A DNA stretch of 64,000 bases from positions 15,829-79,828 of the forward strand of contig JAAZXB010000012.1 of the NCBI GenBank assembly GCA_014240375.1, written 5' to 3'. Both the position numbers and the translations under genes were made by a program. Below the pieces are notes generated by a model that made no database searches, was not told the origin of the DNA, and saw nothing but the letters and a program-made list of their open reading frames with translations. Shown here one piece after another: positions 1,128 through 52,898 of this stretch (its first letter is position 1; each line of letters starts with the position of its first letter). Source of the stretch: Planctomycetota bacterium (GTDB taxonomy: Bacteria > Planctomycetota > UBA8108 > UBA1146).

Positions 1128-1805
1128 CTAAAATGTGCGAATTGACAGGTTTCTGAATTGCAGGCGGGATCCATGAGACTGCAATTCGATCGCTCCTTTG
1201 TTAATGATCGGCTTTTCTCGGTCCCAGTAGTTCTCCAGCACCACATCATCGACCACTCGTTGGCCGTTGAGATCGACCGTGACCCGCTCTCCCTCCATGC
1301 GGATGCGGAAGTGATTCCACTGCCCGGTGGGAAGGTCGGCGGCGACTTGGGGCCGCGATGCGCCGGACTGGTTGTTGTAGAGACCTCCGGAACCCTCCGG
1401 ATGTTGCGCAATATCCCAGATTTGCACCTGGGGAGAGCCTCTCAGGTAGATGCCGCTATCTCCCCCCGGTTCGATCAGCCACTCCAGCTGCAACTCGAAA
1501 TCGGTGAATTGCTCGATGGTGCACAGGTGCGAGCCGTGGCCATCGAAGATCAGCATCCCCTGATCGACGCTCCAGTGCTCTCTCATCTGCTGGTCTGCCC
1601 GCTGCTGCGCCTCCGCTCGCGCCTCGGGTGCCAGCTGGGCCCGGCTGTAGGGGTTCCCCACCAGCCCCTGCCAGCCGCTCAGCGATTGGCCGTCGAACAG
1701 TGGCTGAAATGGCTCAGAGCGCGGATCGGTGGCGCCGCATCCCACCAGCAGTGAGAGGATCCCGAGCCACAGCAGCGGTGATCGGGCAGCCGTTTTGATC
1801 TTCAT
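1128..1805 (-). CDS. DUF1080 / 3-keto-disaccharide-hydrolase-like family lipoprotein (LamG-like jelly roll)
   Basis: The internal Met start gives MKIKTAARSPLLWLGILSLLVGC, which reads as a lipoprotein signal. The C-terminal KGAIELQSHGSRLQFRNLSIR is the typical end of DUF1080 proteins. The upstream 33 codons of the tracked ORF look non-coding. Confidence 0.7.
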   Translation of the reverse strand: MKIKTAARSPLLWLGILSLLVGCGATDPRSEPFQPLFDGQSLSGWQGLVGNPYSRAQLAPEARAEAQQRADQQMREHWSVDQGMLIFDGHGSHLCTIEQFTDFELQLEWLIEPGGDSGIYLRGSPQVQIWDIAQHPEGSGGLYNNQSGASRPQVAADLPTGQWNHFRIRMEGERVTVDLNGQRVVDDVVLENYWDREKPIINKGAIELQSHGSRLQFRNLSIRTF

Positions 1806-2023
1806 GATGAGTGTCCCCCTGGAGGAATATGGCACGGGAAGCGCCGCGAGACCAGCCCGGTCAGTCGTGGCCCCTCGCGGTCCGATGGCGTACGATCCTT
1901 CCACCGGACTCGAATCCAGTTGCGTTGAACCCCTTCGGGAGGAGTGGTGTATTGTCCGAAAATGGCCATGACGGTGCCGTTCTAGCCCCTCTGGACGGGG
2001 GACTGAAGTTCCGCCTGTCGATC

Positions 2024-3307
2024 ATGATGTTTCTCCAGTACGCCATCTGGGGCGCATGGTTACCGCTGCTGTGGGATCTGTTGATGAACGCCAAGGGCTT
2101 CACCGGTGCCGAGGTGGGGAATATCTTTGCAGTCGGGGCGGTGGGAGCGATCTTCGGCCCCTTCATCGCGGGTCAGGTCGCCGATCGCTGGTTCAGAACC
2201 GAGAGATTTCTGGCCCTCAGCCATCTGATCGGGGGAGGGCTGGCGTGGAAGATGGCCTCGCTCGATGATTACAACACCTTCTTCTGGTACGCCCTGATCT
2301 ATGGCCTGATCTATTCCCCGACACTGGCGCTGACCAACAGCCTCTCCTTCCATCACCTTACCGATCGGGATCGAGATTTCGGCAAGATCCGGTTGTGGGG
2401 TACCGTCGGCTGGATCGTCGCCGGAATCGGCATCGGCCAGTGGCTGTTGCATATGCATGCCGGTGGATCGTCGGATAACGCCAAGGCGCCGGAGGTGTAT
2501 GCGGGCATGGCGGATGCCTTCAGGCTCAGCGGCATCTGCGGCATCACCATGGGTTTCTTCTGTCTGTTCGGATTGCCCAGTACTCCTCCGAGCAAGTCTC
2601 AGGATGGAGACAATGCCACGGTAAAGGCGCTGGGCGAGGTCTCTCGTCAGCCGCTGCTGACGCTGTTTCTCATCGCAGTCCCTGTTTCCTGTATCCACCA
2701 GTTTTACTTCGTTCATACCGCGCCTTTTCTCAACACCATTCAGAGTGAACTGGGTGGCTCCGGGCTGGCCGCGAGCCTCAACTCCATCTTCGGCATTGGC
2801 GGTGGCGGATTGATGACGATCGGCCAGATGTCGGAGATCTTCGTACTGGCGATGATTCCGCTGCTGGCGCTGACGCTGAGTCGCAAGAAGTTACTGATGA
2901 TCGGGTTGCTCGCCTATGCCGCCCGGATGGCGCTCTTCGCCTACGCTCCGATGCTAGGTGGTGTGTACGGCATGTCACTGGTGATCCTCGGGGTGGCGCT
3001 TCATGGATTCTGTTTCGGCTGCTTTATCTTCGTCGCCTTCATGGTGGTCGATGAGGAGTGCTCGACGGATGTTCGGGCCAGCGCCCAGAACCTGTTCAAT
3101 CTGGTGATCATCGGTATCGGCATCATCGTCGGTAGCAAGGTCGCCAGTTCGGTGGCCGAGTGGGCGAGTGCCCGGGTCGCCGATGGAGCCCCTTGGTATG
3201 CAAAGACCACCGAAATGTTCCAGGTACCGATGGCCGCCAGCCTGGTGTGTCTGGTACTGCTGGCTCTGCTGTACCCCTCGACCGGAAAGAAGGAGATGTC
3301 ATCATGA
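2024..3307 (+). CDS. MFS transporter, nucleoside:H+ symporter (NHS, NupG/XapB-like) family
   Basis: [16 protein letters not shown]...[15 protein letters not shown]...[13 protein letters not shown] aligns by eye with the XapB/NupG N-terminal motifs (FLQYxxWGSWL, IVADKW, IRxFGTVGFI). About 12 TM segments. The first 71 codons of tracked ORF 1811-3307 are Arg/Pro-rich and look non-coding, so the start is moved to ATG 2024. The start is uncertain. Confidence 0.7.
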
Positions 3308-4263
3308 GACCAGAAGATCCCAACTGGAATCGCCGAGAGTTTTTCGGATGGAGTGTTGGATCGTTGGCTGTCATGGCGAGCCTGACCGGCTGTGCAGGCG
3401 TCGGTTACGGCGTCGTGAGTTCCCGCTGGGGAGCCGCTCCGAAGCCGAACTTCGATGTTTCACTGGCGCAGTGGTCCCTGCATCGCACCTTGCGAAGTGG
3501 AACGATGACGAATCTCGACTTCCCGCGCGTGACCCGTGAGGTGTACGGACTGGGCGCGGTCGAATACGTCAATTCTTTCTTCAAGGACAAGGCCAACGAC
3601 ACTGCGTACCTGACCGACTTGAAGAAACGTTGCACGGATCATGATATCCAGAGCCTGCTCATCATGTGCGATGGCGAGGGACGACTGGGGGATCCCGATG
3701 CCGGTGCCAGGAATCAGGCGGTGAAGAATCATCACCGCTGGGTCGACGCTGCGAAGTTCCTCGGTTGCCACTCGATACGGGTCAATGCCGCGAGCGCAGG
3801 GAGTTACGACGAACAGATGAAACTGGCAGCGGACGGATTGTCGTCGCTGACCGAATACGGCGCGGCCCAGGGGCTCAACGTGATCGTCGAGAATCACGGA
3901 GGGCTCTCCTCCAATGGTGCATGGTTGGCCGGGGTGATGAAGATGGTCGATCAGCCTCGCTGTGGAACCTTGCCCGACTTCGGAAACTTCAACCTCGGAG
4001 GTGGCAAGAGTTACGACCGCTACCTCGGTGTCGAGGAATTGATGCCGTACGCCAAGGCGGTCAGCGCCAAGAGTCACGCCTTTGATGAGAAGGGCAACGA
4101 GACTGCGACTGATTACAAGAGAATGATGAAGATCGTCATGGATGCGGGATACAGGGGTTTCGTCGGAATCGAGTTCGAGGGGGGCGGGGATGAAAAAACC
4201 GGCATCCTGGCGACCCGGGACCTGCTGTACCGGATCAAGAACGAATACTCGAGCAGTAGTTGA
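3304..4263 (+). CDS. Tat-exported sugar phosphate isomerase/epimerase (xylose-isomerase-like TIM barrel)
   Basis: ATG 3304 overlaps the MFS stop (ATGA), with AAGGAG 10 nt upstream. [24 protein letters not shown] is a twin-arginine signal. VIVENHGG...LPDFGNF is typical of PF01261-type TIM barrels. Confidence 0.75.
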
Positions 4264-4345
4264 AATACTCGATCCGTCGGGCCACTCGATCAGTGGTGAC
4301 GGTCGTGAAGAAATAGCAACAGATCTACCTTGAAGAGGAGACGAA

Positions 4346-5686
4346 ATGAACGATGAAGAAACGATGAAGCCGGCAGGGAATGACCGCCGTGACTTCCTCA
4401 AAGGCGCAGCACTGGCAGCCGGTGCCATCGCCATCAGTGGGAACAGTTTGCTCGGCTCGGAGCGGATCGGTGCCAAGACCGGTGTCATCGGTAGAGCCGC
4501 TCGTCGCACCCCCCTGGGCGACGATGGAGTGGTGCGAATGGGAGTCATCGGGACCGGAGGGATGGGCGGTGGCCACATCGATTCCTTCCTCCGCTTTGCC
4601 ACCCGTGGCGAGGACAAGGTCAAGATCGTTGCAGTCTGCGATGTCAACCATAAGCGCCGCGCTGTTGCCGAGAGTAAGATCAACAAGGCGCAAGGGGATG
4701 AGTGCACCGTCTACAACGATTACCTGGAACTGCTCGCTCGCGATGACATTCACGGAGTGCTGATCGCTTCCCCGGAACACTGGCACGCCCAGATGGCTGA
4801 AGATGCGTTGATGGCGGGCAAGGATGTGTACCTCGAGAAGCCGATGACGCTGCGTTTGCCGGAGGCGTTGCGCCTGCGTCAGGTGGTTCTCAATAACCCC
4901 GATGTGCTGCTCCAGGTCGGTACCCAGAAGATCATGCTGCCGAAGTACAAGGCGGCTCAGGCGATGGTTGCAGAGGGCGCGATCGGCAAGCCGACCTTCA
5001 GTCAGACCTCCTACTGTCGCAACTCCAGAGATGGGGAGTGGAAGTACTACGGCATCGATCCCGAGTGGAAGCCGGGGGTCAATGTCGACTGGGATCGCTG
5101 GTGTGGCCCGGCCGGAGTTCGCGACTGGAACCCGGCATTGTGTGCTCGCTGGCGTCGCTACAAGGATTTCTCGACCGGCATCGTCGGTGACCTGCTGGTT
5201 CACGAGATCACTCCGTTGATGATGGCGCTCGATCAGGGCTGGCCCACTCGGGTGGTGGCCACCGGTGGCCATTACATCGACAAGGCGATGGAAAATCACG
5301 ATCAGGTCAACTTGCAGATCCAGTTCGAGAAGGGGCACACCCTCATCGTGGCGGGGTCGACCTGCAACGAGATGGGTCTCGAGACGATGATCCGGGGCCA
5401 TCAGGGCACCATTTACCTCAACGGGGGCAACTGCAAGATGGTCCCTCAGCGCTTGTTCGCCGACGATGTCGAACCGCAAGAGGTGATCTGCGAGAGCATC
5501 GGCAATGATCAGGATGCGCTTCGTCGTAACTGGCTCGATTGCATTCGCACCCGTCGTCAACCCGATTCCAATGTCGATCTGGGGACCAAGGTGATCGTTG
5601 CGGTCGACCTGGCGACCCGTTCGATGTGGGAGGGCAAGGCGTTCGAGTTCGATCCTTCCTCGATGACTGCCACGAGCATCGGCTAG
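4346..5686 (+). CDS. Tat-exported Gfo/Idh/MocA family oxidoreductase
   Basis: GAGGAG precedes the ATG. The RRDFLKGAALAAGAIA Tat motif is followed by a Rossmann fold (MGVIGTGGMGGGH) and the EKP motif (VYLEKPMT). Confidence 0.85.
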   Translation: MNDEETMKPAGNDRRDFLKGAALAAGAIAISGNSLLGSERIGAKTGVIGRAARRTPLGDDGVVRMGVIGTGGMGGGHIDSFLRFATRGEDKVKIVAVCDVNHKRRAVAESKINKAQGDECTVYNDYLELLARDDIHGVLIASPEHWHAQMAEDALMAGKDVYLEKPMTLRLPEALRLRQVVLNNPDVLLQVGTQKIMLPKYKAAQAMVAEGAIGKPTFSQTSYCRNSRDGEWKYYGIDPEWKPGVNVDWDRWCGPAGVRDWNPALCARWRRYKDFSTGIVGDLLVHEITPLMMALDQGWPTRVVATGGHYIDKAMENHDQVNLQIQFEKGHTLIVAGSTCNEMGLETMIRGHQGTIYLNGGNCKMVPQRLFADDVEPQEVICESIGNDQDALRRNWLDCIRTRRQPDSNVDLGTKVIVAVDLATRSMWEGKAFEFDPSSMTATSIG

Positions 5687-5705
5687 TCGGTCGCGGGGAT
5701 ACGAG

Positions 5706-6608
5706 ATGATGCACAGGGGAGCTCTCCCGGCGATGGGAACTCGATTCGAGATCGTCGCCGGGGGAGCGGATCCCGCTCTTCTACGTGCTGCAGTGGAGGA
5801 AGCCTTCGAGGAGATCTCCACCTGTCATCGGTTGTGGAATGTTTTTTCCAACGACAGCACACTGGCACGAATCGATGCCGAATCTGCCGGTAAACCGGTG
5901 ACCATCGATGGGCTGACACTGGAACTGCTGCAGATCTGTTCCCGACTTCATCAGCAGACTGGCGGTTTCTTTGATCCGGTCATCGGAGCGGACCTGGCGG
6001 CCGGGGATCCGCGTCGCGCTCCGATCTTCGGTGTCGCTCCTCGAGATGGTTTCGGGGGAATCGAACTCGATGCTGCGGCTTCCACTGTACGGCGACACGA
6101 TTCTCGATTGAGGTTCGACCTGGGGGGGATCGCCAAGGGCTTTGCCTGTGATCTGGCCGCCTCGATCCTGCTCGAAGCGGGAGTGGAGTGTGCGTTGATC
6201 CATGGCGGCACCAGTAGCGTGGTGGCGTTGGGAGCGGCTCCGGGAAGGCAGGACTGGTCGATCGAGGTGAAGGGTTACGAGGGGAAGCAGATCGGACTGG
6301 TCGACCGTGCGATGGCGGTCACCTCCGCCGGAGGCGGCGGCGCAGGGGGCCACCTCATCGATCCCTTCAGCGGCGATCGACTCGGGCGTGATCGCGGTGG
6401 AGCGATGGTGGTCGGAGACAGTGCAACCGACTGTGATGGCTGGGCCACCGCACTGACTGTGGCTGGCTTTGAAGGAGATGTGGCCCGACAGATTCCTGCA
6501 ACGATGCAGGGCTATCGGCTCAACAATGAAGAATCGACTCACATGAAACCGGAAGCTGAGGCATCCGTGGAAGAGGAACGATGGAAACGGACCGTAGAGA
6601 TTTCTTGA
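5706..6608 (+). CDS. apbE: FAD:protein FMN transferase ApbE (no signal peptide)
   Basis: The AMGTRFEI (MGT motif), DLGGIAKGFA and AVTSAGGG motifs are characteristic of ApbE. The N-terminus starts directly at the catalytic core with no signal peptide or lipobox. It overlaps the next gene by 28 nt. Confidence 0.75.
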   Translation: MMHRGALPAMGTRFEIVAGGADPALLRAAVEEAFEEISTCHRLWNVFSNDSTLARIDAESAGKPVTIDGLTLELLQICSRLHQQTGGFFDPVIGADLAAGDPRRAPIFGVAPRDGFGGIELDAAASTVRRHDSRLRFDLGGIAKGFACDLAASILLEAGVECALIHGGTSSVVALGAAPGRQDWSIEVKGYEGKQIGLVDRAMAVTSAGGGGAGGHLIDPFSGDRLGRDRGGAMVVGDSATDCDGWATALTVAGFEGDVARQIPATMQGYRLNNEESTHMKPEAEASVEEERWKRTVEIS

Positions 6609-7810
6609 TCCAGAGCGCAGGTGCACTGGCCGGGATGGCACTTCTTCCAGGACTGGAAGCGATGGCGACGAATGTCCCGAAAGGCTATCCGGTTGCCATC
6701 ATCGGCATGGGCCGACAGGGTCGAGCGATTGCCGCAGAGTTGCAGAAACTGGGAGCGGCCATCGTGGCGATCTGTGACCTCGATGAGCCGCGATTGAGAA
6801 GTGCCAGGAGGCGCGTCTCGGATGCCACTCCCTATGCCGATTCGGATTCGTTGCTGACGACCGAGAAGGGAGTGGAGGCGGTCTTCATCGCCACCCCGAC
6901 CCACCAGCATCGGGCGATTGCCGAGGCGGCAGTGGCGGCGGGCAAGCATGTCTACTGCGAGGCGCCGCTGGCACATACCCTCGAGGATGCTCGGGCCATC
7001 GCCTTGGCCGCCCGTTCCAATCCGCGAGTTTTCCAGGTCGGGTTGTTGGCGCGATCCAATCCGGTCTACTCGCTGGCTCGCTCCTTCTTCCGCACCGAGG
7101 CGTTCCTCAAGTTGGTCTCGATGCGCGCCCAGAACTCACGGAAAACCTCCTGGCGTCAAGCGGCCTCGACTGCCGAGCGGCAAGCTCGTCTCGACTGGCG
7201 TCTCGACCCCACCGTGTCGCTCGGATTGCCGGGAGAATGGGGCACCCATCAGTTTGATGTCATTCATTGGTTCACCGGGCAGTATCCCCATCGTGTGTCG
7301 GGAAATGGCGGAGTGTTCGTGTGGGAAGATGGGCGCAAGGTCGCCGATACCGTCAACTTGACCCTCGAGTTTCCCAAGGGCCAGAGTCTCCAGTACCAGG
7401 CGACGCTGGGCAATTCATATGGTGGCCGCTACGAGGTGCTCCATGGCGTCAACTCCGCATTCAAACTGGCCTGGAGTCATGGCTGGATGTTCAAGGAAGC
7501 GGATGCGGCGACGCAGGGCTGGGAAGTCTACGCCAACCGTCAGCGCTTCTTCAATGACGAGGGGATCACCCTCATCGCTGATGCGACCAAACTCGCCAGT
7601 CAGAACAAGTTGAAGGATGGGGTTGGACTCCCCAATGATTCTCTCCATTACGGTGTGGCAGATTTCCTGCTGAGTTGTGCAGAGCAGATGAAGGTCAAGA
7701 CGGGGGTCAGTGAAGGACTGCGAGCGACTGCCGTGGGGATCGCTGCACAGCGTGCGGTGGTCGAGGGTGGCGTGATCGAGATCTCACAGGACGATCTGAA
7801 GGAGGCCTAG
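6581..7810 (+). CDS. Tat-exported Gfo/Idh/MocA family oxidoreductase
   Basis: The RRDFLIQSAGALAGMAL Tat signal is followed by a VAIIGMGRQGRA Rossmann fold and a CEAPLA (EKP-variant) motif. Confidence 0.8.
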   Translation: METDRRDFLIQSAGALAGMALLPGLEAMATNVPKGYPVAIIGMGRQGRAIAAELQKLGAAIVAICDLDEPRLRSARRRVSDATPYADSDSLLTTEKGVEAVFIATPTHQHRAIAEAAVAAGKHVYCEAPLAHTLEDARAIALAARSNPRVFQVGLLARSNPVYSLARSFFRTEAFLKLVSMRAQNSRKTSWRQAASTAERQARLDWRLDPTVSLGLPGEWGTHQFDVIHWFTGQYPHRVSGNGGVFVWEDGRKVADTVNLTLEFPKGQSLQYQATLGNSYGGRYEVLHGVNSAFKLAWSHGWMFKEADAATQGWEVYANRQRFFNDEGITLIADATKLASQNKLKDGVGLPNDSLHYGVADFLLSCAEQMKVKTGVSEGLRATAVGIAAQRAVVEGGVIEISQDDLKEA

Positions 7811-7813
7811 TCG

Positions 7814-8611
7814 ATGGGATCAATGCCAATCGCTGGAGAGGGGCTCAGTTCTCAACCGATGGGCATCCGGACCGGGATCAGCGCCCTGATCGTGGTGCTC
7901 TATATCGGACTCCTCGCCAGTGCGACGCACATGGTGAGTCACTTCGAGAATCGTGATGAACGACCCGGTTTCACCCTGGATGATGTGACCGGCGCGTACC
8001 ACGGTATCGACAGCCCTGGATTGCTCGGTACAGCCCTCGAAAGGGGACATCCGGAGACGCTGCCTGCGGCGCAGAGGGAGTTGCTACTGAGCTGGCTCAC
8101 GGGTGGGCGTATCGTCGAGGATTACGACAGCCTCGACCTGGAAATCCCACCCGCCGAGATCATCGATCTGAGTTGCATCGAATGTCACACCAGGGCCGCC
8201 GGTGCCGCGACCGGCTCGGTGATCCCACCGCTGGAGTACTTCGACGATATCAAGGAGATCGCCTTCTCCCGCAAGGTGCTGCCCACGCCGGTCGAGGTGC
8301 TGGCCGCCTCGACCCATGCCCATGCCCTGGCGCTGTCGATCCAGGGATTGGTGGTGATCGCACTGGCGTGCATGACACGCTGGCGGCGCCGCTGGATCTC
8401 CTTATTGATCGCCATCATGGGGCTGGGACTGGTCGGCGATGTAGGGGGTTGGTGGTTGGCCCGTTTCAGTCCATCCTGGACGCTGTGCATCATCGTCTCG
8501 GGGACGGCATACAGCGTTTCTCAGGGGATCTTGCTCGCCTCGGTGCTGGCGGATCTCTGGTGGCCCGGGGCCAGTACGAGCGGAACAAAACAGCAAACGG
8601 ACACGGAATAG
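7814..8611 (+). CDS. Small polytopic membrane protein with one CXXCH (c-type heme) motif
   Basis: AGGAGG lies 9 nt upstream. I count four hydrophobic helices (ISALIVVLYIGLLASA, LALSIQGLVVIALAC, ISLLIAIMGLGLVG, TLCIIVSGTAYSVSQGILLASVL). SCIECH sits in the loop between TM1 and TM2. No family recognised. Confidence 0.6.
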   Translation: MGSMPIAGEGLSSQPMGIRTGISALIVVLYIGLLASATHMVSHFENRDERPGFTLDDVTGAYHGIDSPGLLGTALERGHPETLPAAQRELLLSWLTGGRIVEDYDSLDLEIPPAEIIDLSCIECHTRAAGAATGSVIPPLEYFDDIKEIAFSRKVLPTPVEVLAASTHAHALALSIQGLVVIALACMTRWRRRWISLLIAIMGLGLVGDVGGWWLARFSPSWTLCIIVSGTAYSVSQGILLASVLADLWWPGASTSGTKQQTDTE

Positions 8612-8616
8612 GAGTC

Positions 8617-9891
8617 ATGATGAGCCAGCAGAAGCCAGGTGCGAGCCGTCGAGAGTTTTTGAAGGGTGCTGCGGTCGCTTCAGCGGCGACCTTGTTGACC
8701 CCCTCACTGTTGCAGGGCAAGGCGCATGCCGATGGCTCGGATGTGATCCGGGTTGGATTGATCGGCTGTGGAGGCCGAGGATCCGGTGCCGCCAACAACT
8801 GCGTGAACTCCTCCGAAGGAGTCAAGATCACCGCGATGGCGGATCTGTTCCGCGACCGTCTCGACTCGAGTCGAAACAACCTCAAGGGGCTGGGGGATCG
8901 CTTCGATGTTCCCGAGGAGCGCTGCTTCGTCGGCTTTGATGCCTACCAGCAACTGCTCGACTCCGGTGTCGACATGGTGATCCTGGCGACGCCTCCCGGA
9001 TTCAGACCGATCCACTTCGAGGCGGCTGTGGCTGCGGGTAAGCATGTCTTCATGGAGAAGCCGGTCGCCACCGATGGGCCGGGAATCCGCAAGGTACTGG
9101 CTGCCGCCAAGGTCGCCAAGCGCAAGGGGCTGGCGGTGGTCGCCGGAACCCAGCGTCGTCATCAGAAGAGCTATATCGAAACGATGCAGCAGATCCACGA
9201 CGGTGCCATCGGAGAACTGGTCGGCGCTCAGGTCTACTGGAATCAGGGGGGACTGTGGGTGACGCGTCAAACCCCGCAGATGTCCGACATGGAGTGGCAG
9301 GTGAGAAACTGGCTCTACTTTGCCTGGGCCAGCGGCGATCACATCGTCGAGCAGCACATCCACAACATCGATGTGATGAACTGGGCCTTCGGTGGACCTC
9401 CCGAGAAGGCCAACGCCATGGGTGGCCGCCAGGTGCGTACCGGTCCGGAGTACGGCCATATCTTCGACCACTTCGCAGTCGAGTACGTCTACCCGGGTGG
9501 AGTGAGAACCCTCAGTGAATGCCGTCAGATCGACGGCTGCTGGAACCGGGTTTCGGAGAAGATCATCGGCACCAAAGGGGTCGCCAATCCCTCCGGACGC
9601 ATCACCGGCGAAAAGAACTGGAGCGCCCCTGGCGGTGGAAGAAACGCCTATGTTCAGGAACATGCCGATCTGATCGCCAGTATCCGCGCCAATGAACCGC
9701 TGAATGAGGCGGAGCGGGTCGCGATGAGTACCCTGACCGCCATCATGGGTCGGATGAGTGCTTACACCGGCAAGGAAGTCACCCTCGAGTTCGCACTCAA
9801 CTCGCAGAACAGCCTGCACCCCGAGAAGTGGCAGTTTGGTGATCTGGCGCTGCCTGCAGTTGCGATCCCCGGACGCACGGCTCTGGTCTAG
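8617..9891 (+). CDS. Tat-exported Gfo/Idh/MocA family oxidoreductase
   Basis: AGGAG is 4 nt upstream of the ATG. The SRREFLKGAAVASAATLL Tat signal is followed by a VGLIGCGGRGSGAA Rossmann fold and the FMEKPVA (EKP) motif. The tracked ORF 8173-9891 extends upstream as an in-frame read-through of gene 7814-8611 and was trimmed. Confidence 0.85.
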   Translation: MMSQQKPGASRREFLKGAAVASAATLLTPSLLQGKAHADGSDVIRVGLIGCGGRGSGAANNCVNSSEGVKITAMADLFRDRLDSSRNNLKGLGDRFDVPEERCFVGFDAYQQLLDSGVDMVILATPPGFRPIHFEAAVAAGKHVFMEKPVATDGPGIRKVLAAAKVAKRKGLAVVAGTQRRHQKSYIETMQQIHDGAIGELVGAQVYWNQGGLWVTRQTPQMSDMEWQVRNWLYFAWASGDHIVEQHIHNIDVMNWAFGGPPEKANAMGGRQVRTGPEYGHIFDHFAVEYVYPGGVRTLSECRQIDGCWNRVSEKIIGTKGVANPSGRITGEKNWSAPGGGRNAYVQEHADLIASIRANEPLNEAERVAMSTLTAIMGRMSAYTGKEVTLEFALNSQNSLHPEKWQFGDLALPAVAIPGRTALV

Positions 9892-9900
9892 GGGGCAGCG

Positions 9901-10821
9901 TTGGATCGCAGAAATTTTATCTCCGCGGCAGCTCTGGGAGTGGTCGGCAGTAGCTGGGTGGGTGCCATGAAACCGGGGGCAGAAATGTCGACCCCAGCGG
10001 ACTCTTCGCTTCAGCCTCGCCTCAAGAAGTCTCTCAAGATCGGCATGGCGAATGTCGGAAAGACACTGGAGGAGAAGTTCGAAATTCTCAAGGAAGTCGG
10101 ATTTGACGGAGTCGAACTCGATTCGCCTTCCGCTCTCGACTGGCGAGAAGTGTTGCGCGCGAAGGCGGCGACCGGTCTCGAGATTCCCGGAGTGGTGTGC
10201 TCCTCACACTGGGGAAAGCCACTTTCTGCGACGGACGAAAAGGTCCGTCAGCAGGGGATCGAGGGAGTCGAAACCGCGCTGAGAGATTGCCGCCTCTTCG
10301 GTGGCACCACGGTGCTGGTGGTGCCGGGAGTTTGCCGAGATGGAGTCACCTACGAGCAGGCGTGGAAACGATCGACCGAGGCGATTCATCAGTTGATTCC
10401 TCTGGCGGCAGAATTGCGCGTTCGAATCGCCTTCGAGAATGTCTGGAATGATTTCATCACCGATGCCGATGAAGCGGTGAAGTATGTCGATCAGTTCAAC
10501 AGTCCATGGGTCGGCTGGTACTTTGATACCGGTAACATCGTTCGTTATGGCAGTCCCCCCGAGTGGGTGAGAAAACTGGGCGCACGAACCATCAAGGTCG
10601 ACATCAAGGATTATTCCCTCTCCCGCAAGGAGAAGGATGGAGTGTGGGCCGGATTCGCCTGCAAGATCGGAGATCCGGACTCATCGGTTCAGTGGTCTGA
10701 AACGATGAAGGCGCTCGTGGAGATAGGCTACCGTGGTTGGGGGTCTGCCGAGGTGAGCGGCGGAGATCAAGAGCGCCTGGCCGATATTTCCCGTCGTATG
10801 GATGACGTGTATTCCAGGTAG
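9901..10821 (+). CDS. Tat-signal sugar phosphate isomerase/epimerase (xylose-isomerase-like TIM barrel)
   Basis: A TTG start sits 7 nt after a GGGGG run. RRNFISAAALGVVGS is a Tat motif. IAFENVW...WYFDTGNIVRYG...IKVDIKD is typical of the family. Confidence 0.7.
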   Translation: MDRRNFISAAALGVVGSSWVGAMKPGAEMSTPADSSLQPRLKKSLKIGMANVGKTLEEKFEILKEVGFDGVELDSPSALDWREVLRAKAATGLEIPGVVCSSHWGKPLSATDEKVRQQGIEGVETALRDCRLFGGTTVLVVPGVCRDGVTYEQAWKRSTEAIHQLIPLAAELRVRIAFENVWNDFITDADEAVKYVDQFNSPWVGWYFDTGNIVRYGSPPEWVRKLGARTIKVDIKDYSLSRKEKDGVWAGFACKIGDPDSSVQWSETMKALVEIGYRGWGSAEVSGGDQERLADISRRMDDVYSR

Positions 10822-10921
10822 TGGTTTCCCGTGGAAGCCTCTATCATCGAAGAGTACCCCCGACTCGTATCGGGACGAGAGAACCTGACCGCAGTATTGA
10901 TCCCCATGAGAGGTCATCTTC

Positions 10922-13900
10922 ATGTCTCTGACGACTAAAAGCGTGTTCCTGTTGCTTGCACTGTCCCTCTGCTCTGGCCTATCGGGACAGGTTAGCGCGG
11001 ATTCCTGGGTCAACTGGGAAAGCCCTCCTGTTCATCCACTGGAACTGGTTTCGGGCAGTGACCTGCTGCTGGCAACCAACACGGCAGATTCCCATCTGGA
11101 GATCTACAACATCAGTTCCGGTGTCCCGGTGCCGCTCATGTCGGTGCCGGTAGGACTCGATCCGGTATCGGTGCGAGCTCGCAATGCCACCGAGGCGTGG
11201 GTGGTGAATCGAATTTCAGACACCATCAGTATCGTCGACCTTCAAAATGGCTATGTCCGATGGACATTGATGACAGCGGATGAACCTGCGGATGTGATCT
11301 TTGCTGGCACGCCGGAACGCGCTTATGTTTCCTGCTCGGGAACCGATGAGATCATGGTGTTCGATCCATCCGATGTGACGGCCTCCCCCGAGATCATTTC
11401 CTTGGTGGGTGAGGAGCCTCGGGCACTTGCCAAGAGCCCCGACGGATCGATCGTCTACTGCGCCATCTTTGAATCGGGCAATGGCACCACCGTGCTCGGC
11501 GGTGGTTTCGATATCGGGGCCAATGTCATCGCTTTTCCGCCCAATGTCGTCAATGATCCAGCAGGGCCTTATGGTGGCGTCAATCCTCCGCCCAATTCCA
11601 ATGGCGAGTTTGAGCCACCAATTAACCCCAGCATCGGTACACCTCCACCCGTGGCACTGATCGTCAAGAAGATCGACCAGGATGTGTGGGTCGATGATAA
11701 CGGAAGTGACTGGGGAGATCTGGTCAGCGGGCCACAGGCAGGCCTCTCGGGTCGCCAGGTCGGCTGGGATCTGGCAGATCATGATGTCGCGGTCATCGAT
11801 ACCACCGACAACTCGGTCACATACATCCAGTCGCTGATGAACATCTGCATGGCGATCGGTGTTCGTCCGACCGATGGAGCCATCTCGGTGGTCGGAACAG
11901 AGGCATTCAATCACATCCGCTACGAACACAATCTCAACGGGAACTTCATCGATGTGCTGCATGCGATGATCGCCCCGGGAGGTGCGGCCATTGCGCAGAT
12001 TGATGATCTCAATCCGCATCTACCCGCCAGTGGTGTCAGTGTTCCCCTCGATCAGCAGTTGCTGAGCATAGGAGATCCGCGTGCCATCGTCTGGAATGCC
12101 GCAGGTACCGAGGCTTTTGTCGCAGGCAAGGGATCCGGGAATGTGGTCCGGCTCCAGGCGGACGGAACCCGGGATCTTGTGGCGGATCCCATCGACGTGG
12201 GTGCCGGTGCGACCGGTCTCGCCCTCGATGAATCGAGGGGAAAGCTCTACGTGCTGGAGCACTTCGATGCCTCGGTCGCTTCCATCGATATTCAGACCGG
12301 CACCGTCAGTGGTCGAGAGACCTATCACGATCCCACCGGAGCAGTGGTGCGCTCGGGTCGAAAGTTCCTCTACGACACACACCTCACCTCCGGAATGGGC
12401 CAGGTCTCCTGTGCTTCTTGCCATGTCGATGCGCGGACCGATCGCCTGGCGTGGGATCTGGGAGATCCGGCGGGAGAGGAGGCTCCATTCGTCGATGTCT
12501 GCAACATGGGTCTGCCGCTTCCGGGTGTTCCTCCGTGTGATGATTTCCATCCGATGAAGGGGCCGATGTTGACCCAGACATTGCAGGACATCATCGGGAA
12601 GGAACCTCATCACTGGCGTGGAGACAAATTTGGTATCGAGGCCTTTGGTGGCGCATTCATGTCGATCAATGGGGATGATCTCCCGGTCGGAGGGGTAGCG
12701 ATGCAGGAGTTCGAGGCATACCTCGCCAGCATCTATTTTCCGCCCAATCCGTTTCGCGGCATGAGAAATGAGTTGCCCACCGCATTGCCACTCGACGGCC
12801 ATTTCACGACCGGTCGCTTCGGTTCTGAAGGTGAAATACTGGGCAGTGGAAATGCAGAGACAGGGCTGGATCTTTATCGCAATGCTGGCCTCGATGGAGG
12901 TTTGCAGTGTGTGACCTGCCACGCGCTTCCCATCGGAATCGGACCCAACTCTGAATTCAGTTCTGGTTTTGTCATGGCAACGATTCCCGACGGTCCGATG
13001 GGGGAAAAGCACCATGGTATGGTCAGTGTCGACGGTTCCGTTCAGCGGAACATCAAAATCCCTCAGTTGCGAAACGTCTACAAGCGCACCGGTTTCAACA
13101 CCACCCAACTGCTCAATACAACCGGATTTGGATACCTGCACGACGGGTCGGTGGATTCTGTTGAACGCTTCATCAGTGAGCCGGCCTTCTCGGTGACCAA
13201 TGATCAACAGATTGCAGATCTGACCGCCTTCATGCTGGCATTCTCTGGATCCGACCTACCAGAGGGAAGTAACCAGACTCCCTTCGAACCACTCGGGTCG
13301 CCGAGCCAGGATTCGCACGCTGCAGTGGGGATGCAGATCACCCTGGACGAGACCAATAGAGATGACGCTGAAGTGCTCGCAGATGCGCAGATCATCCTCG
13401 ATGAGGCGAGTCTGGGCAGGGTCGGTGTGATCGCCAAGGCGTGGCAAGGCGGATTCCTTCGTGGATGGGTAATGGTGGGCGCCGGCACCGGTGTGTTCCA
13501 GTCCGACATCCTCGCAGAAGCCACCACCTTCACCGACCTTCGCAACTCGGCGGTAGCCGGTGCGGAAGTGACCTTCACCGTGGTTCCGACCGGTTCGGCG
13601 CTGAGGATGGGGATCGATCGCGATCTCGATGGTCATTTTGATGGGGACGAACGCCTTGCCTGTTCCGATCCTGCCGATGCACTGTCTCAACCTGGATCCT
13701 GCTCTGGCGTGTTCTTTGTCCGTGGCGACGGAAATGGCGACGGCGCACTTGATATCTCCGACGCTATTTCAACGCTAACGCTCCTGTTCAGCGGTGGCAG
13801 TTCCAGCACCACCTGTGAGGATGGTCACGACAGTAATGATGATGGGGCCATCGATATCGGAGACCCGATCGCTCTGCTCTCGTACCTCTTTGCTGGAGCC

Positions 13901-13984
13901 GCAGAGTTGCCGGCCCCGGGGGCCAACTGCGGTGAGGATCAGACGGGCGACACCTTGCAGTGTAGCGAGACCGTCTGTCCCTGA
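10922..13984 (+). CDS. Secreted fusion protein: N-terminal beta-propeller-like region, di-heme cytochrome c peroxidase (CCP/MauG)-like domain, C-terminal dockerin-like module
   Basis: The signal peptide is MSLTTKSVFLLLALSLCSGLSGQVSA. FLYDTHLTSGMGQVSCASCH matches the CCP-family first-heme signature, and a second CXXCH is present (CVTCH). The C-terminus carries two Ca-binding dockerin-type repeats (GDGNGDGALDISDAISTLTLLF, DSNDDGAIDIGDPIALLSYLF) and then a CGEDQTGDTLQCSETVCP tail. Confidence 0.8.
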   Translation: MSLTTKSVFLLLALSLCSGLSGQVSADSWVNWESPPVHPLELVSGSDLLLATNTADSHLEIYNISSGVPVPLMSVPVGLDPVSVRARNATEAWVVNRISDTISIVDLQNGYVRWTLMTADEPADVIFAGTPERAYVSCSGTDEIMVFDPSDVTASPEIISLVGEEPRALAKSPDGSIVYCAIFESGNGTTVLGGGFDIGANVIAFPPNVVNDPAGPYGGVNPPPNSNGEFEPPINPSIGTPPPVALIVKKIDQDVWVDDNGSDWGDLVSGPQAGLSGRQVGWDLADHDVAVIDTTDNSVTYIQSLMNICMAIGVRPTDGAISVVGTEAFNHIRYEHNLNGNFIDVLHAMIAPGGAAIAQIDDLNPHLPASGVSVPLDQQLLSIGDPRAIVWNAAGTEAFVAGKGSGNVVRLQADGTRDLVADPIDVGAGATGLALDESRGKLYVLEHFDASVASIDIQTGTVSGRETYHDPTGAVVRSGRKFLYDTHLTSGMGQVSCASCHVDARTDRLAWDLGDPAGEEAPFVDVCNMGLPLPGVPPCDDFHPMKGPMLTQTLQDIIGKEPHHWRGDKFGIEAFGGAFMSINGDDLPVGGVAMQEFEAYLASIYFPPNPFRGMRNELPTALPLDGHFTTGRFGSEGEILGSGNAETGLDLYRNAGLDGGLQCVTCHALPIGIGPNSEFSSGFVMATIPDGPMGEKHHGMVSVDGSVQRNIKIPQLRNVYKRTGFNTTQLLNTTGFGYLHDGSVDSVERFISEPAFSVTNDQQIADLTAFMLAFSGSDLPEGSNQTPFEPLGSPSQDSHAAVGMQITLDETNRDDAEVLADAQIILDEASLGRVGVIAKAWQGGFLRGWVMVGAGTGVFQSDILAEATTFTDLRNSAVAGAEVTFTVVPTGSALRMGIDRDLDGHFDGDERLACSDPADALSQPGSCSGVFFVRGDGNGDGALDISDAISTLTLLFSGGSSSTTCEDGHDSNDDGAIDIGDPIALLSYLFAGAAELPAPGANCGEDQTGDTLQCSETVCP

Positions 13985-17210: not shown

Positions 17211-18059
17211 GTGGTAGCCGAGGCGAAGAACAACAAGAAGAAGAAGAAGAACAAGAAGAAGAAACCCGATCGACAGGCTTTTCTGGCCAACAAGCACGAC
17301 CTTTACCAGAGAGCGGTTCAGGAACCATCGGCAGACAACGAGTTCATGTCCAAGCTCTTTGCGCAGAAGTTCCAACGAGATGCCATCGTGATGAGGGAAG
17401 ACTTCTGTGGTACCGGCCTGCTCTCGGCCACCTGGGTCGAGGAAGATCCGCAGCGCAAGGCGATCGGTTACGATCTGGATGTGGAGACGGTGGAGTGGGG
17501 CATCGAGAACAATCTCGCCAAGCTGGATGATGAACAGCGCTCCCGTGTCGACCTGCGAATCGCCGATGTCCTGGATGCCCCGAAGGATCCGGTCGACATC
17601 ATCTGTGCGATGAATTTCTCCTGGTGGATCTTCAAGAAGCGTCAGGAGTTACTCGAATACTTCAGATCAGTTCGGTCCAGCCTTCATCCAGAAGGGCTCT
17701 TCATTCTCGACATCTATGGCGGCAAGGAAGCCTATGAGGAGATGGAAGAGGAACACGAGAAGGATGGTTTCGATTACATCTGGGATCAGGATGCGGTGTG
17801 CGGGGTCAGTGATGAAATTCTCTGCCATATCTCCTTCCACTTCCCCGATGGGTCGAAGATGAAAAGGGCGTTCACCTACGACTGGCGTCGCTACGGTATG
17901 CGTGAAAGCCAGGAGATCCTCCTCGATGCCGGTTTTTCCAAGGTCGAGGTCTACTGGGAGGGCGTCGATGATGAAGGTGACGGTGACGGCGAGTTCACCC
18001 TCACCACTCGGGCGGAGAGTACCGATGCCTGGATCGCCTACCTGGTCGCCATTCCTTAG
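17211..18059 (+). CDS. Class I SAM-dependent methyltransferase with poly-lysine N-terminus
   Basis: FCGTGLLS (motif I-like) plus downstream acidic motifs. An imperfect (AAG/AAC)n tract at 17225-17264 encodes KNNKKKKKNKKKKPD. Alternative start ATG 17346 (MSKLFAQ...). Confidence 0.65.
   Translation: MVAEAKNNKKKKKNKKKKPDRQAFLANKHDLYQRAVQEPSADNEFMSKLFAQKFQRDAIVMREDFCGTGLLSATWVEEDPQRKAIGYDLDVETVEWGIENNLAKLDDEQRSRVDLRIADVLDAPKDPVDIICAMNFSWWIFKKRQELLEYFRSVRSSLHPEGLFILDIYGGKEAYEEMEEEHEKDGFDYIWDQDAVCGVSDEILCHISFHFPDGSKMKRAFTYDWRRYGMRESQEILLDAGFSKVEVYWEGVDDEGDGDGEFTLTTRAESTDAWIAYLVAIP
17225..17264 (+). repeat. Imperfect (AAG)n trinucleotide tract (in-frame, encodes poly-Lys)
   Basis: gaagaacaacaagaagaagaagaagaacaagaagaagaaa. 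Confidence 0.9.
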
Positions 18060-18907
18060 GGTGCCGTCGGAATCACGGCAGTCGAAGTTCCCGAACTCGC
18101 TCCACTGACGCTGGCGACCAGCCACAACACCACCGGATACCCTGCCGCTTCGAGGGCTGCGGTTGCCGCACCCATCGTGGCCCCGGTGGTCAGAACATCA
18201 TCGACCAGCACGATCGATGGAGCGGTGGGACTCTTTGGCGCGGCTCCACAGTAAAAAGCACGGGCCGCGAGTGCTCGCCGTCGATGTGCCGGGAGAGTGA
18301 CTTGCGCTCTACCTGGGTTCCTCCTCAGTAGCCTTCGGTACGGCAGACCGCGCTGACGAGCGATCGGGATTGCCAGCCGTTCGGCGAAGGAGAGCCCCTC
18401 GATCCAGCTTCGGCGCCAGTGTCTGGGTATCGCCACCACAGTCCAGTGGCTGCACTCCTCGAACTGCAAAGAGCGGGATGGGCACTCCAGCGAGCGCCAC
18501 CGATCGACCAGGGTGGACGCCAGTAGCCCGGCGATATCGTCCCTCTGTTGGCTCTTTCCCTTGAGGATCAGACCCCGCAGAGAACCTTCATGAGTCGAGA
18601 TGTGGATCAGCGGGCGTTGCGGAGCCGTATCGAGGCAGGCGGCACAGCGCCCCTCGAACCGCTCCTCTCGCTGGAGGCAGCGGGGGCAGGTGGGGGACAG
18701 CGGCGGCAGATCACCGAGGCAGGTGCCGCAGAGAGCCCTGGCGGGGAGAGGATTCCCACCACAGAGACGGCACTGCTCCGGCCACAGTAGTGCCGCCAGT
18801 GCGGCCAGTGCGGCCCAGGCCGGAGGCGGTCTCCGGCCGTCCTCTTGTCCAGAAGTGGACGGTCGATCTGGACAGCCAGCGCTTGTACCGCTATCGTCGG
18901 TGCCCAT
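18056..18907 (-). CDS. comF: ComF family phosphoribosyltransferase (ComFC-like)
   Basis: An N-terminal Zn-ribbon (CRLCGG...CGTC...CPRC) is followed by the PRT motif VLVDDVLTTGAT. The start ATG (MGTDDSG...) lies at 18905-18907, directly abutting the tRNA on the other strand. The longer tracked ORF would overlap the tRNA and was trimmed. Confidence 0.7.
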   Translation of the reverse strand: MGTDDSGTSAGCPDRPSTSGQEDGRRPPPAWAALAALAALLWPEQCRLCGGNPLPARALCGTCLGDLPPLSPTCPRCLQREERFEGRCAACLDTAPQRPLIHISTHEGSLRGLILKGKSQQRDDIAGLLASTLVDRWRSLECPSRSLQFEECSHWTVVAIPRHWRRSWIEGLSFAERLAIPIARQRGLPYRRLLRRNPGRAQVTLPAHRRRALAARAFYCGAAPKSPTAPSIVLVDDVLTTGATMGAATAALEAAGYPVVLWLVASVSGASSGTSTAVIPTAP

Positions 18908-18983
18908 GCCGGTGTAGCTCAGTTGGTAGAGCAAAGGAATCATAATCCTTGGGTCCGGGGTTCGAGTCCCTGCGCCGGTACCA
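18908..18983 (+). tRNA. tRNA-Met (anticodon CAU), elongator-like, CCA encoded
   Basis: I folded the cloverleaf by hand. The D arm is GCTCAGTTGGTAGAGC, the anticodon loop is AATCATAAT (CAT at 34-36), the T arm is GGTTCGAGTCC, and the acceptor stem is 7 bp with two G-U pairs. It resembles elongator tRNA-Met. Confidence 0.8.
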
Positions 18984-18997
18984 ATTTGCGATGTGCA

Positions 18998-19030
18998 CTC
19001 CCGACCGACCGGGTCGGTCGGGAGTTTTTC
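18998..19030 (+). terminator. Rho-independent terminator downstream of tRNA-Met
   Basis: CTCCCGACCGACC-G-GGTCGGTCGGGAG is a perfect inverted repeat followed by TTTTTCTT. Confidence 0.75.
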
Positions 19031-19143
19031 TTCGATATCAGCGCTCATTCGTTGCACCATCGCTGGCGAGGAACTCGGGGGGCACTGCAACTCGAGTACC
19101 GATGGATCGAAATCGATGAATCGAAATCGAGAGGGGAAGCGAC

Positions 19144-19503
19144 ATGGCACAAGATGGGCCTTCTCACCATCCTCGGCCGGATCCTGATCGACCGGTGATC
19201 GACGAGGCGCTGGTGCGAAAAACCGCTCACCTGGCGCGGCTGGAAGTCTCTGACGATGAAATCCCGGGACTGGTCGAGCACCTGGAAAAGATTCTTGATC
19301 TGGTCGATACACTGCGATCGGTCGAGATTCCCGAGGGCCATCGGTCCGATCTTCACGTCTCGCAAGCGACCGTCTCGATGACCCGTGAAGATCAATCCGC
19401 AACCCCGACCGATGCCGGTGGCCCCAGAGACCCGGCAGCGTTCGGCGGAAATGCTCCCGACTGGCGAGATGGTTCCTTTGTCACCCCAAGAGTCGTCGGC
19501 TAG
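19144..19503 (+). CDS. gatC: Asp/Glu-tRNA amidotransferase subunit C
   Basis: IDEALVRKTAHLARLEVSDDEIPGLVEHLEKILDLVDTL matches the GatC core. Alternative GTG start at 19195. Confidence 0.8.
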   Translation: MAQDGPSHHPRPDPDRPVIDEALVRKTAHLARLEVSDDEIPGLVEHLEKILDLVDTLRSVEIPEGHRSDLHVSQATVSMTREDQSATPTDAGGPRDPAAFGGNAPDWRDGSFVTPRVVG

Positions 19504-52705: not shown

Positions 52706-52779
52706 GGGTCCTTAGCTCAGCTGGTTAGAGCGACGGACTCATAATCCGTTGGTCGCAGGTTCGAGTCCTGCAGGACCCA
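52706..52779 (+). tRNA. tRNA with CAU anticodon, most similar to lysidine-type tRNA-Ile2 (alternatively Met)
   Basis: The hand-folded cloverleaf has a perfect 7-bp acceptor stem (GGGTCCT/AGGACCC) and the anticodon loop CTCATAA. The sequence closely tracks E. coli ileX as I recall it (UUAGCUCAG..GGUUAGAGC..ACUCAUAAU..UUGGUCGC.GGUUC.AGUCC). CCA is not encoded. Confidence 0.75.
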
Positions 52780-52898
52780 CACCTTTATCCAACCCCATCT
52801 GGTGAGTGGTCGACATTTTACGTCGTTCGCAGAGCGATCCTGTAGGACCCACACCTTTTTCGCTTCTTGCTGCACCCTGCGAGAGAGGATTCCTCGGT

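Follow-up and report, generated by a model that had tools for sequence, protein, structure and literature searches.

This study concerns a 64,000-nucleotide stretch of Planctomycetota DNA (GenBank assembly GCA_014240375.1, contig JAAZXB010000012.1, positions 15,829 to 79,828 of the forward strand), hereafter called the window, and one gene in it that encodes an ApbE-family flavin adenine dinucleotide (FAD):protein flavin mononucleotide (FMN) transferase. It was found that this ApbE lacks a signal peptide and belongs to a conserved module with the gene order GFO_A, ApbE, GFO_B, and membrane cytochrome (Table 1). GFO_A and GFO_B are two Gfo/Idh/MocA proteins with a predicted signal for twin-arginine translocation (Tat), and the last gene encodes a putative monohaem cytochrome c of the PF27139 family with four transmembrane (TM) helices. 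The same four-gene core surrounds all six ApbE homologues that were looked up (35-46% identity), and the flanking genes vary. I give an even chance to the reading that a cytoplasmic ApbE matures a Tat substrate before export, most likely GFO_B at a non-canonical site.

The signal-less ApbE and its place in the module

The ApbE open reading frame (ORF) starts with ATG, and the protein opens MMHRGALPAMGTRFEI. It matches PF02424 (ApbE) with 118.5 bits against a cut-off of 25.6, and the domain is complete: residues 10-257 align to positions 1-250 of the 266-position profile. The narrower E. coli-type equivalog of NCBIfam, PRK10461, scores 31 bits, below its threshold of 498. The first-pass annotation of this DNA, made from the letters alone, had placed the MGT motif 10 residues from the start without a signal or lipobox, and this was confirmed in several ways. 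Residues 1-9, ahead of MGT, are non-hydrophobic and free of Cys, and neither a Sec or lipoprotein signal nor a lipobox Cys was found in the window ApbE. The N-terminus, MMHRGALPAMGT, has no twin-arginine (RR) motif and no hydrophobic region, unlike a NosX-type Tat signal. In the AlphaFold2 (AF2) model, residues 2-9 already form beta-strand 1. Upstream of the ATG, an in-frame TGA stop lies at 5664-5666; the 13 codons in between read LPRASASRSRGYE, include no ATG, GTG, or TTG, and are non-hydrophobic and not signal-like. Since only 19 nt separate the GFO_A and ApbE genes, a signal peptide has no room. Thus, the earlier statement that there is no upstream start holds, whereas the stop that it described 20 nt upstream is in fact the TAG at 5684-5686, which ends the preceding gene in another frame.

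The short N-terminus is not peculiar to the window. In all of the best 120 of 550 ApbE homologues (243-376 amino acid residues), 0-28 residues precede the MGT motif, which usually begins at position 10, and no hydrophobic leader is present; those with names are from metagenome-assembled genomes (MAGs) of Planctomycetota or Phycisphaerae. In 73 orthologous loci, the frame upstream of ApbE closes within a few codons or is a non-coding overlap with the preceding gene. Judged from these sequences, the short signal-less N-terminus is a property of the whole clade and not an annotation error, and the window ApbE would be located in the cytoplasm.

Some relatives have two ApbE genes. L038 (15169-16242, minus strand) and L045 (12116-13330, minus strand), loci being referred to here by L numbers, encode a canonical ApbE in addition, a few kilobases from the module, and this copy has both a hydrophobic leader and a lipobox. 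The second ApbE near the module in L030 and L077 has a hydrophobic leader and no evident lipobox, and the second copy in L071 is cut by the contig end. All of these second copies have the full-length TSGDxEQ...HIIDP loop. Since a canonical lipobox ApbE coexists with the signal-less one in some relatives, the latter is a specialized paralogue rather than a decayed copy.

The AF2 model of ApbE, built on 54 homologues, has a mean predicted local distance difference test (pLDDT) value of 90.6 and a predicted TM-score (pTM) of 0.88. It shows the pair of T-fold domains as well as the helical insert of the ApbE fold, with a disordered tail at residues 277-300. Among the solved ApbE, Ftp, and FmnB structures listed by Foldseek at E <= 0.001, the model aligned with 4ifu, 3pnd, 6nxi, 4xgv, 5mgy, 1vrm, and 7esa with TM-scores of 0.70-0.78 and E-values of 1e-15 to 1e-19. 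K144, the Lys of the GIAKG motif, and H216 are present in 74 of 74 ApbE orthologues, and T248, the Thr of the Mg site, in 73 of 74. Position 206 is Ser or Thr and position 244 is Asp or Glu in all 74. S206/207, H216, D244, and T248 of the window ApbE align with TSG, HHIIDP, and DALAT of Treponema pallidum Ftp. The conserved catalytic residues of Vibrio cholerae ApbE are Ser241, His257, and Asp285 (PMC12052999), and both the Ser/His/Asp triad and the Mg-site D-x-x-x-T are kept in the window protein. Since the catalytic residues are strictly conserved, the window ApbE is likely to be a working transferase. A short loop between Ser and His (9-10 residues against the canonical 16) was considered as a clade-specific change of the active site and rejected; it is confined to the subclade of the window, and many orthologues have the canonical length.

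Gene order was assessed in two scans, one anchored on the membrane protein in GTDB genomes (80 loci) and the other anchored on a GFO_B peptide in metagenomes (120 loci). Where enough sequence was available, GFO_B is directly preceded by ApbE in 132 of 133 loci and directly followed by the membrane cytochrome in 144 of 145, and GFO_A is directly upstream of ApbE in 101 of 106. The gap between ApbE and GFO_B has a median of 32 nt over the loci. In the window the two genes overlap by 28 nt, as had been noted before, the ApbE stop codon being at 6606-6608 and the GFO_B start at 6581. It had also been noted that the gene lies among Tat substrates, and RR motifs are indeed present in the products of 3304-4263, 4346-5686, 6581-7810, 8617-9891, and 9901-10821. 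The first-pass annotation had named in advance two points on which its idea of a cytoplasmic ApbE loading an exported neighbor depends, namely the absence of a signal peptide and a non-random location of ApbE in relatives. The second is answered by the recurrence of the same Tat-signal Gfo/Idh/MocA gene beside ApbE, in all but one of the loci that could be assessed.

Five loci lack GFO_A (L102, L187, L195, L211, and L214). There, a DUF7133/GSDH-like beta-propeller protein of 1133 residues with HEAT repeats and one C-terminal CxxCH (e.g., L211:7799-11200, minus strand) takes its place, followed by a reduced ApbE of 238 residues, also signal-less, and by GFO_B and the cytochrome. In L196, GFO_A has moved downstream of the cytochrome. 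In both situations ApbE stays beside GFO_B. Since GFO_A can be replaced or moved, the constant unit of the module consists of ApbE, GFO_B, and the membrane cytochrome. The variant module suggests that this triad works with more than one kind of periplasmic dehydrogenase.

The partner proteins and the search for a flavin acceptor

GFO_B opens METDRRDFL, and the RR motif of this predicted Tat signal is found in all 75 of the orthologues listed. The protein matches PF01408 (78.5 bits), PF22725, and PF02894, and its Rossmann motif, G-x-G-R-Q-G-R, is conserved, as in a two-domain Gfo/Idh/MocA protein. The catalytic E-K-P motif reads E-A-P (residues 127-129) and thus lacks the Lys. C-E-A-P is found in the window GFO_B and in five of six compared sequences, and L092 has C-E-C-P. 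E127 and P129 are invariant in 47 orthologues, and no Lys is conserved between them in 78 orthologues. The best-conserved part of GFO_B is an almost invariant insertion of about 65 residues (residues ~295-360), GWMFKEADAxTQGWEVYANRQ...GITLIADATKLA...GVGLP, which is absent from solved GFO structures and was matched by no Pfam model. T330 and T336, both in GITLIADATKLA, are invariant in 83 GFO_B orthologues that were gathered without this peptide as a search pattern. T311 (EADAxTQGW) is a less likely acceptor than these two, being Val or Ile in the distant orthologues of L087, L089, L090, and L094. Those orthologues adjoin PF27139 genes, on contigs that are too short to reveal an ApbE. Because the Lys of E-K-P is replaced by Ala and the best-conserved part is an insertion new to solved GFO structures, GFO_B resembles a subunit for docking or electron transfer more than an ordinary dehydrogenase.

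In GFO_A, both GxGxxG and the catalytic E-K-P are intact. Its Tat signal is predicted by TIGR01409 and PF10518, and the RR motif is present in at least 95% of 70 orthologues. The best matches are the BT_2158 glycoside 3-dehydrogenase family, whose score of 103 is far below the equivalog cut-off of 750 bits, and the PDB entries 8tdf and 8tdh. T339 is found in 73 of 73 orthologues, and V-A-G-S-T339, which it ends, comes closest to a flavinylation motif. GFO_A also has near-invariant Cys residues, C224 (SQTSYCRNS), C253 (WCGP), and C363, and C340 and C399 are present in about 80% of the orthologues. These Cys residues are widely spaced and may serve in disulfides or as ligands of a metal or cluster.

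The AF2 model of the membrane protein (pLDDT 88.3) has the four TM helices and a periplasmic domain of residues ~43-160, and no specific PDB fold match was found for it. The CxxCH motif (C121, C124, and H125) is invariant in 80 orthologues and is present in nearly all of 148 family representatives. By this motif the protein is predicted to be a c-type cytochrome with attached haem. The motif would face the periplasm, judging from the positively charged loop at 189-194 and the modeled helices. H79 is invariant in close orthologues and is Met in remote homologues. As this swap is the pattern expected of a sixth haem ligand, H79 probably has that role. A pair of His residues, HxH (H168 and H170), is invariant in TM2. 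CxxCH, the HxH of TM2, and, in TM3, a D...WW motif are shared over the entire PF27139 family. The putative sixth ligand differs, being His (GHP) in members linked to the module and Met in remote members that stand alone. The family is widespread and uncharacterized, with 890 clusters at 50% identity.

The ApbE substrates described in PMC8238504, PMC11334425, and PMC12052999 all have a motif of the [S/T]GA[S/T] type. The search for D-x-x-[ST]-G-A-[ST] in the cluster proteins, which the first-pass annotation had recommended, was run. No strict match was found in the six-frame ORFs longer than 150 residues of the window, no conserved one in the partner proteins, and no conserved one in the six-frame ORFs of all loci taken together (about 200 loci and about 2.5 million residues). 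No FMN_bind, Nqr, or Rnf gene was found in the window, and no FMN_bind or fumarate-reductase-like gene was found in the window or in the neighborhoods of the homologues looked up. The two near-miss targets proposed earlier did not survive: DVGAGATG lies in the protein of 1020 residues encoded at 10922-13984, which is not part of the core, and GSGAAN is the GxGxxG dinucleotide-binding loop IGCGGRGSGAANN of the third GFO protein (8617-9891).

The sole D..[ST]GA. match in the window is DDVTGAY in the cytochrome (residues 56-62). It was considered as a flavinylation site with Tyr as the acceptor and rejected, as T59 is variable in close orthologues, while remote members, which have no ApbE beside them, lose Gly-Ala and have Phe, never Ser or Thr, at the position of Y62. 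VDDVLTTGATMG, a match to the relaxed motif at about 18187 on the minus strand, is a phosphoribosyl pyrophosphate (PRPP) loop of the phosphoribosyltransferase type and not a target. Some ApbE orthologues themselves (L054/L204, L171, which is on the same contig as L092, and L198) have an active-site motif, H-[IV]-[IL]-D-P-R-T-G-A-[ST], that fits the strict consensus. It is not conserved (HLIDPFSGD in the window ApbE) and is probably a coincidence. Mutagenesis has shown that substitutions of the Asp, Gly, and Ala of the flavinylation motif are tolerated (PMC12052999), and a non-canonical site is therefore conceivable.

How the module may work

The reading in which ApbE acts on a Tat substrate in the cytoplasm is the most parsimonious one, and it is based on synteny, on the rule of folded export by Tat, and on the chemistry of electron transfer from a hydride donor to a haem, which requires a flavin in between. 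The Tat system exports folded, cofactor-loaded proteins; Zymomonas glucose-fructose oxidoreductase, for example, is exported with NADP already bound. Between NAD(P)H, which gives up a hydride, and a haem, which accepts one electron, a mediator of the flavin type is required. From these points I infer flavinylation, its timing before export, the acceptor protein and residue, and the electron path as follows. ApbE would be the cytoplasmic maturation factor of a conserved periplasmic electron-transfer module. It would use cytoplasmic FAD to link FMN, through a phosphoester bond, to a Thr or Ser residue of a Tat substrate in its folded state. The most probable substrate would be GFO_B, because its adjacency to ApbE survives the replacement or relocation of GFO_A, and the candidate sites are T330 or T336 in the insertion. 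An alternative acceptor may be T339 of GFO_A. The cofactor-loaded protein would leave via Tat and dock in the periplasm on the cytochrome encoded next. The flavin would then serve as a two-electron to one-electron converter between the haem and the tightly bound nicotinamide of a sugar dehydrogenase, which would be GFO_A or, in the variant module, the DUF7133/GSDH-like protein. The haem would pass the electrons on to the respiratory chain. In its most specific form, with FMN loaded in the cytoplasm onto T330 or T336 of GFO_B without an [S/T]GA[S/T] motif, followed by Tat export to a dedicated cytochrome c, the proposal is less likely than not.

Several points weigh against this proposal. Since neither GFO_A nor GFO_B nor the cytochrome has a conserved [S/T]GA[S/T] motif, the acceptor would be non-canonical, and the candidate Thr residues were chosen by their conservation. 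The NAD-type Rossmann motif of GFO_B is apparently intact, and its need for FMN is argued from chemistry. No Gfo/Idh/MocA protein is known to bear a flavin. The loci are MAG or metagenome contigs of one phylum with some duplicates, and thus the counts of gene neighborhoods overstate independence. L212 has GFO_B and the cytochrome and no ApbE within the available 1.1 kb upstream, and remote PF27139 homologues have neither ApbE nor GFO genes beside them.

The tight coupling of ApbE to GFO_B, including the overlap of the two genes in the window, and the synteny of the module would also be expected if ApbE were exported together with its neighbor. In that case, ApbE would fold and bind FAD in the cytoplasm, cross the membrane with GFO_B or GFO_A, and flavinylate its target, either a GFO subunit or the cytochrome's periplasmic domain, in the periplasm, which would also solve the supply of FAD outside the cytoplasm. 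The characterized ApbE proteins are mostly periplasmic, NosX-type homologues are reported to be Tat substrates themselves, and it is established that a Tat-signal subunit can take signal-less partners along in export (PMC10924467). However, nothing points to a stable complex of ApbE with a GFO protein, and both GFO proteins have a Tat signal of their own, which is unusual for such pairs. DDVTGAY, the one sequence in the cytochrome's periplasmic domain that resembles the motif, is not a flavinylation site, and a genome that has the module can encode an ordinary lipoprotein ApbE as well, available for work in the periplasm. Co-export is unlikely.

The lack of the canonical acceptor motif in every partner may instead mean that there is no covalent flavinylation. 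ApbE would then be an FAD-binding or FAD-pyrophosphatase subunit, or a chaperone for cofactor insertion and proofreading of Tat precursors resembling a redox enzyme maturation protein (REMP), and a flavin or nucleotide would be supplied or held non-covalently. T. pallidum Ftp, the closest relative with a solved structure, combines the activities of an FAD pyrophosphatase and an FMN transferase, the score for the ApbE equivalog is very low relative to its cut-off, and the reduced ApbE of the variant module reads E-A-E-A-x-S-T in place of D-A-W-x-T. On the other hand, the His general base, the Ser, the Asp/Glu, the Thr of the Mg site, and the Lys of GIAKG are essentially invariant down to about 35% identity, and a REMP-like role is known for no protein with the ApbE fold. 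I assign a low probability to this possibility.

It is very improbable that the target is a cytoplasmic protein encoded at an unlinked site and bearing a canonical motif, for example an FMN_bind protein resembling fumarate or urocanate reductase, and that the place of ApbE in the operon reflects co-regulation only. A known cytoplasmic ApbE does act on a cytoplasmic reductase with an FMN_bind domain, and the part of the source genome that was examined is 64 kb. However, the persistence of ApbE beside GFO_B in nearly every locus, at an ApbE identity of only 35-46%, is hard to explain without a direct functional link, and neither an FMN_bind, Nqr, or Rnf gene nor a strict motif was found in the window, nor a conserved strict motif in the ORFs of all loci. 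Finally, the idea that a misassigned start codon, a frameshift, or a fault in the assembly conceals a signal peptide is refuted by the in-frame TGA 13 codons upstream, the 19 nt to the preceding gene, the same short N-terminus in 120 homologues and 73 loci, and the start of strand 1 of the ApbE fold at residue 2.

If flavinylation of these partners, which lack the canonical motif, were confirmed, both the recognition rule and the substrate range of ApbE would widen. Cytoplasmic flavin loading followed by Tat export would bypass the unsolved problem of FAD supply to the periplasm. Planctomycetota and their relatives have many Tat-signal Gfo/Idh/MocA enzymes with a tightly bound nicotinamide, and the route of their re-oxidation in the periplasm is not known. 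The proposed mechanism would give a concrete answer to how such NAD-locked enzymes are re-oxidized. If true, it would be the first case of ApbE flavinylation coupled to Tat export, with a new class of ApbE substrate and a new recognition rule, and it would constitute a periplasmic wire from NAD via FMN to haem that feeds the respiratory chain from Tat-exported NAD-locked sugar dehydrogenases.

Surrounding genes and known systems

The genes of the window from 1811 to 13984 are co-directional and spaced by -28 to 100 nt, and terminator-like sites are not in excess there (Table 1). The true start of the transporter gene is probably downstream of 1811, since the orthologue in L001 has 450 residues. 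The third GFO gene is present in L001 and L006-L025 and absent in L003, L004, and L091, and the beta-propeller gene is absent beside the module in L003, L004, L091, L092, and L093. Thus, neither belongs to the core. The propeller orthologue is one gene of 1019 residues in L002 (14305-17364) and two genes of 479 and 526 residues in the near-identical L001 (14305-17364), which is probably due to a frameshift or an assembly difference.

Table 1. Genes of the ApbE module and its surroundings in the window
Product	Position	Strand	Basis
Accessory: secreted 3-keto-disaccharide hydrolase (PF06439), divergent, upstream	1128..1904	-	Pfam
Accessory: major facilitator superfamily (MFS) transporter, Nuc_H_symport/LacY-like	1811..3307	+	Pfam
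Accessory: xylose-isomerase-like TIM barrel (AP_endonuc_2), RR motif and lipobox-like LTGC	3304..4263	+	Pfam
GFO_A, Tat-signal Gfo/Idh/MocA dehydrogenase, 446 aa	4346..5686	+	Pfam/NCBIfam, PDB matches, synteny
ApbE-family FAD:protein FMN transferase, signal-less, 300 aa	5706..6608	+	PF02424, AF2, conservation
GFO_B, Tat-signal Gfo/Idh/MocA paralogue, 409 aa	6581..7810	+	Pfam/NCBIfam, conservation, synteny
Membrane monohaem cytochrome c (predicted), PF27139 (Aq_1264_TM), 265 aa	7814..8611	+	PF27139 on homologues, conservation, AF2
Accessory: third Tat-signal Gfo/Idh/MocA oxidoreductase	8617..9891	+	Pfam/NCBIfam, RR motif
Accessory: Tat-signal xylose-isomerase-like TIM barrel (AP_endonuc_2)	9901..10821	+	Pfam, RR motif
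Accessory: secreted beta-propeller, 1020 aa, weak match to haem peroxidases of the cytochrome c peroxidase (CCP)/MauG type (CxxCH)	10922..13984	+	

Farther away in the window, the ORF 18056-19402 (minus strand) is partly spurious, as it runs across a tRNA-Met gene at 18908-18983 (plus strand). Its 3′ part is ComF/phosphoribosyltransferase-like with the PRPP loop VDDVLTTGAT. A second tRNA-Met gene lies at 52706-52780. The ORF 59802-61385 (minus strand) encodes 527 residues that are almost entirely ankyrin repeats (Ank_2, 312 bits), which is unusual in bacteria and unrelated to the ApbE module.

In the searchable literature, neither a description of the module was found nor a paper that links ApbE with Gfo/Idh/MocA proteins, with Tat substrates as its targets, or with PF27139/aq_1264. 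A signal-less or cytoplasmic class of ApbE is in itself not new, being represented by Klebsiella and the trypanosomatid fusions, and NosX is exported by Tat. A large survey of flavinylation dropped clusters without a predicted signal peptide on ApbE or known substrate domains, and left genomes with an 'orphan' ApbE unexplained (PMC8238504). Because of its signal-peptide filter, the clade of the window ApbE would have been missed.

The periplasmic lipoproteins ApbE of V. cholerae, E. coli, and S. enterica, Ftp of T. pallidum, and FmnB of L. monocytogenes belong to the same Pfam family and have the same fold as the window ApbE, and share with it the triad, the Mg-site D-x-x-x-T, and the Lys of GIAKG. 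In contrast, the window ApbE has no signal or lipobox, its identity to the solved ApbE/Ftp structures is 15-25%, and its clade has HGGTS and VSAPxGR where the periplasmic enzymes have GGD/N and TSGxYER. No partner with an [S/T]GA[S/T] motif (NqrC, RnfG, NosR, PplA, DUF2271, or DUF3570) is near it; the neighbors are instead the Tat-signal Gfo/Idh/MocA proteins and the cytochrome c. In Klebsiella, a cytoplasmic ApbE flavinylates a cytoplasmic fumarate reductase, and trypanosomatid fumarate reductases have fused ApbE domains (PMC12052999). Like the window ApbE, the enzymes of Klebsiella pneumoniae and trypanosomatids have no signal peptide, and they act inside the cell. However, their target is a cytoplasmic FMN_bind protein with a canonical motif that stays inside, whereas the partners in the window have Tat signals and neither FMN_bind nor the motif. 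NosX, which flavinylates NosR in N2O respiration, is an ApbE homologue tied to Tat and to a periplasmic redox module, as is the window ApbE. NosX is reported to bear a Tat signal of its own and to modify a canonical motif in the periplasm, while only the neighbors of the window ApbE have Tat signals.

The glycoside 3-dehydrogenase/3-keto-glycoside pathway (BT_2158) is where the best NCBIfam and PDB matches of GFO_A belong. Xylose-isomerase-like TIM barrels and the PF06439 hydrolase, which are families of this pathway, flank the module in the window, L001, and L004. The pathway is redox-neutral on tightly bound NAD and needs neither a flavin transferase nor a cytochrome. Thus, the triad of ApbE, GFO_B, and the cytochrome is an addition relative to it. 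The overall logic of the proposed module is the same as that of the membrane-bound FAD-dependent glucoside 3-dehydrogenase, gluconate 2-dehydrogenase, and fructose dehydrogenase, in which the flavin of a Tat-exported sugar dehydrogenase passes electrons to a membrane cytochrome c. These enzymes consist of a glucose-methanol-choline (GMC)-type flavoprotein, whose FAD is histidyl-linked or non-covalent, and a multihaem cytochrome. The module described here would differ from them in having the NAD-Rossmann fold of Gfo/Idh/MocA proteins, an FMN that ApbE is proposed to install, and an uncharacterized monohaem cytochrome with four TM helices.

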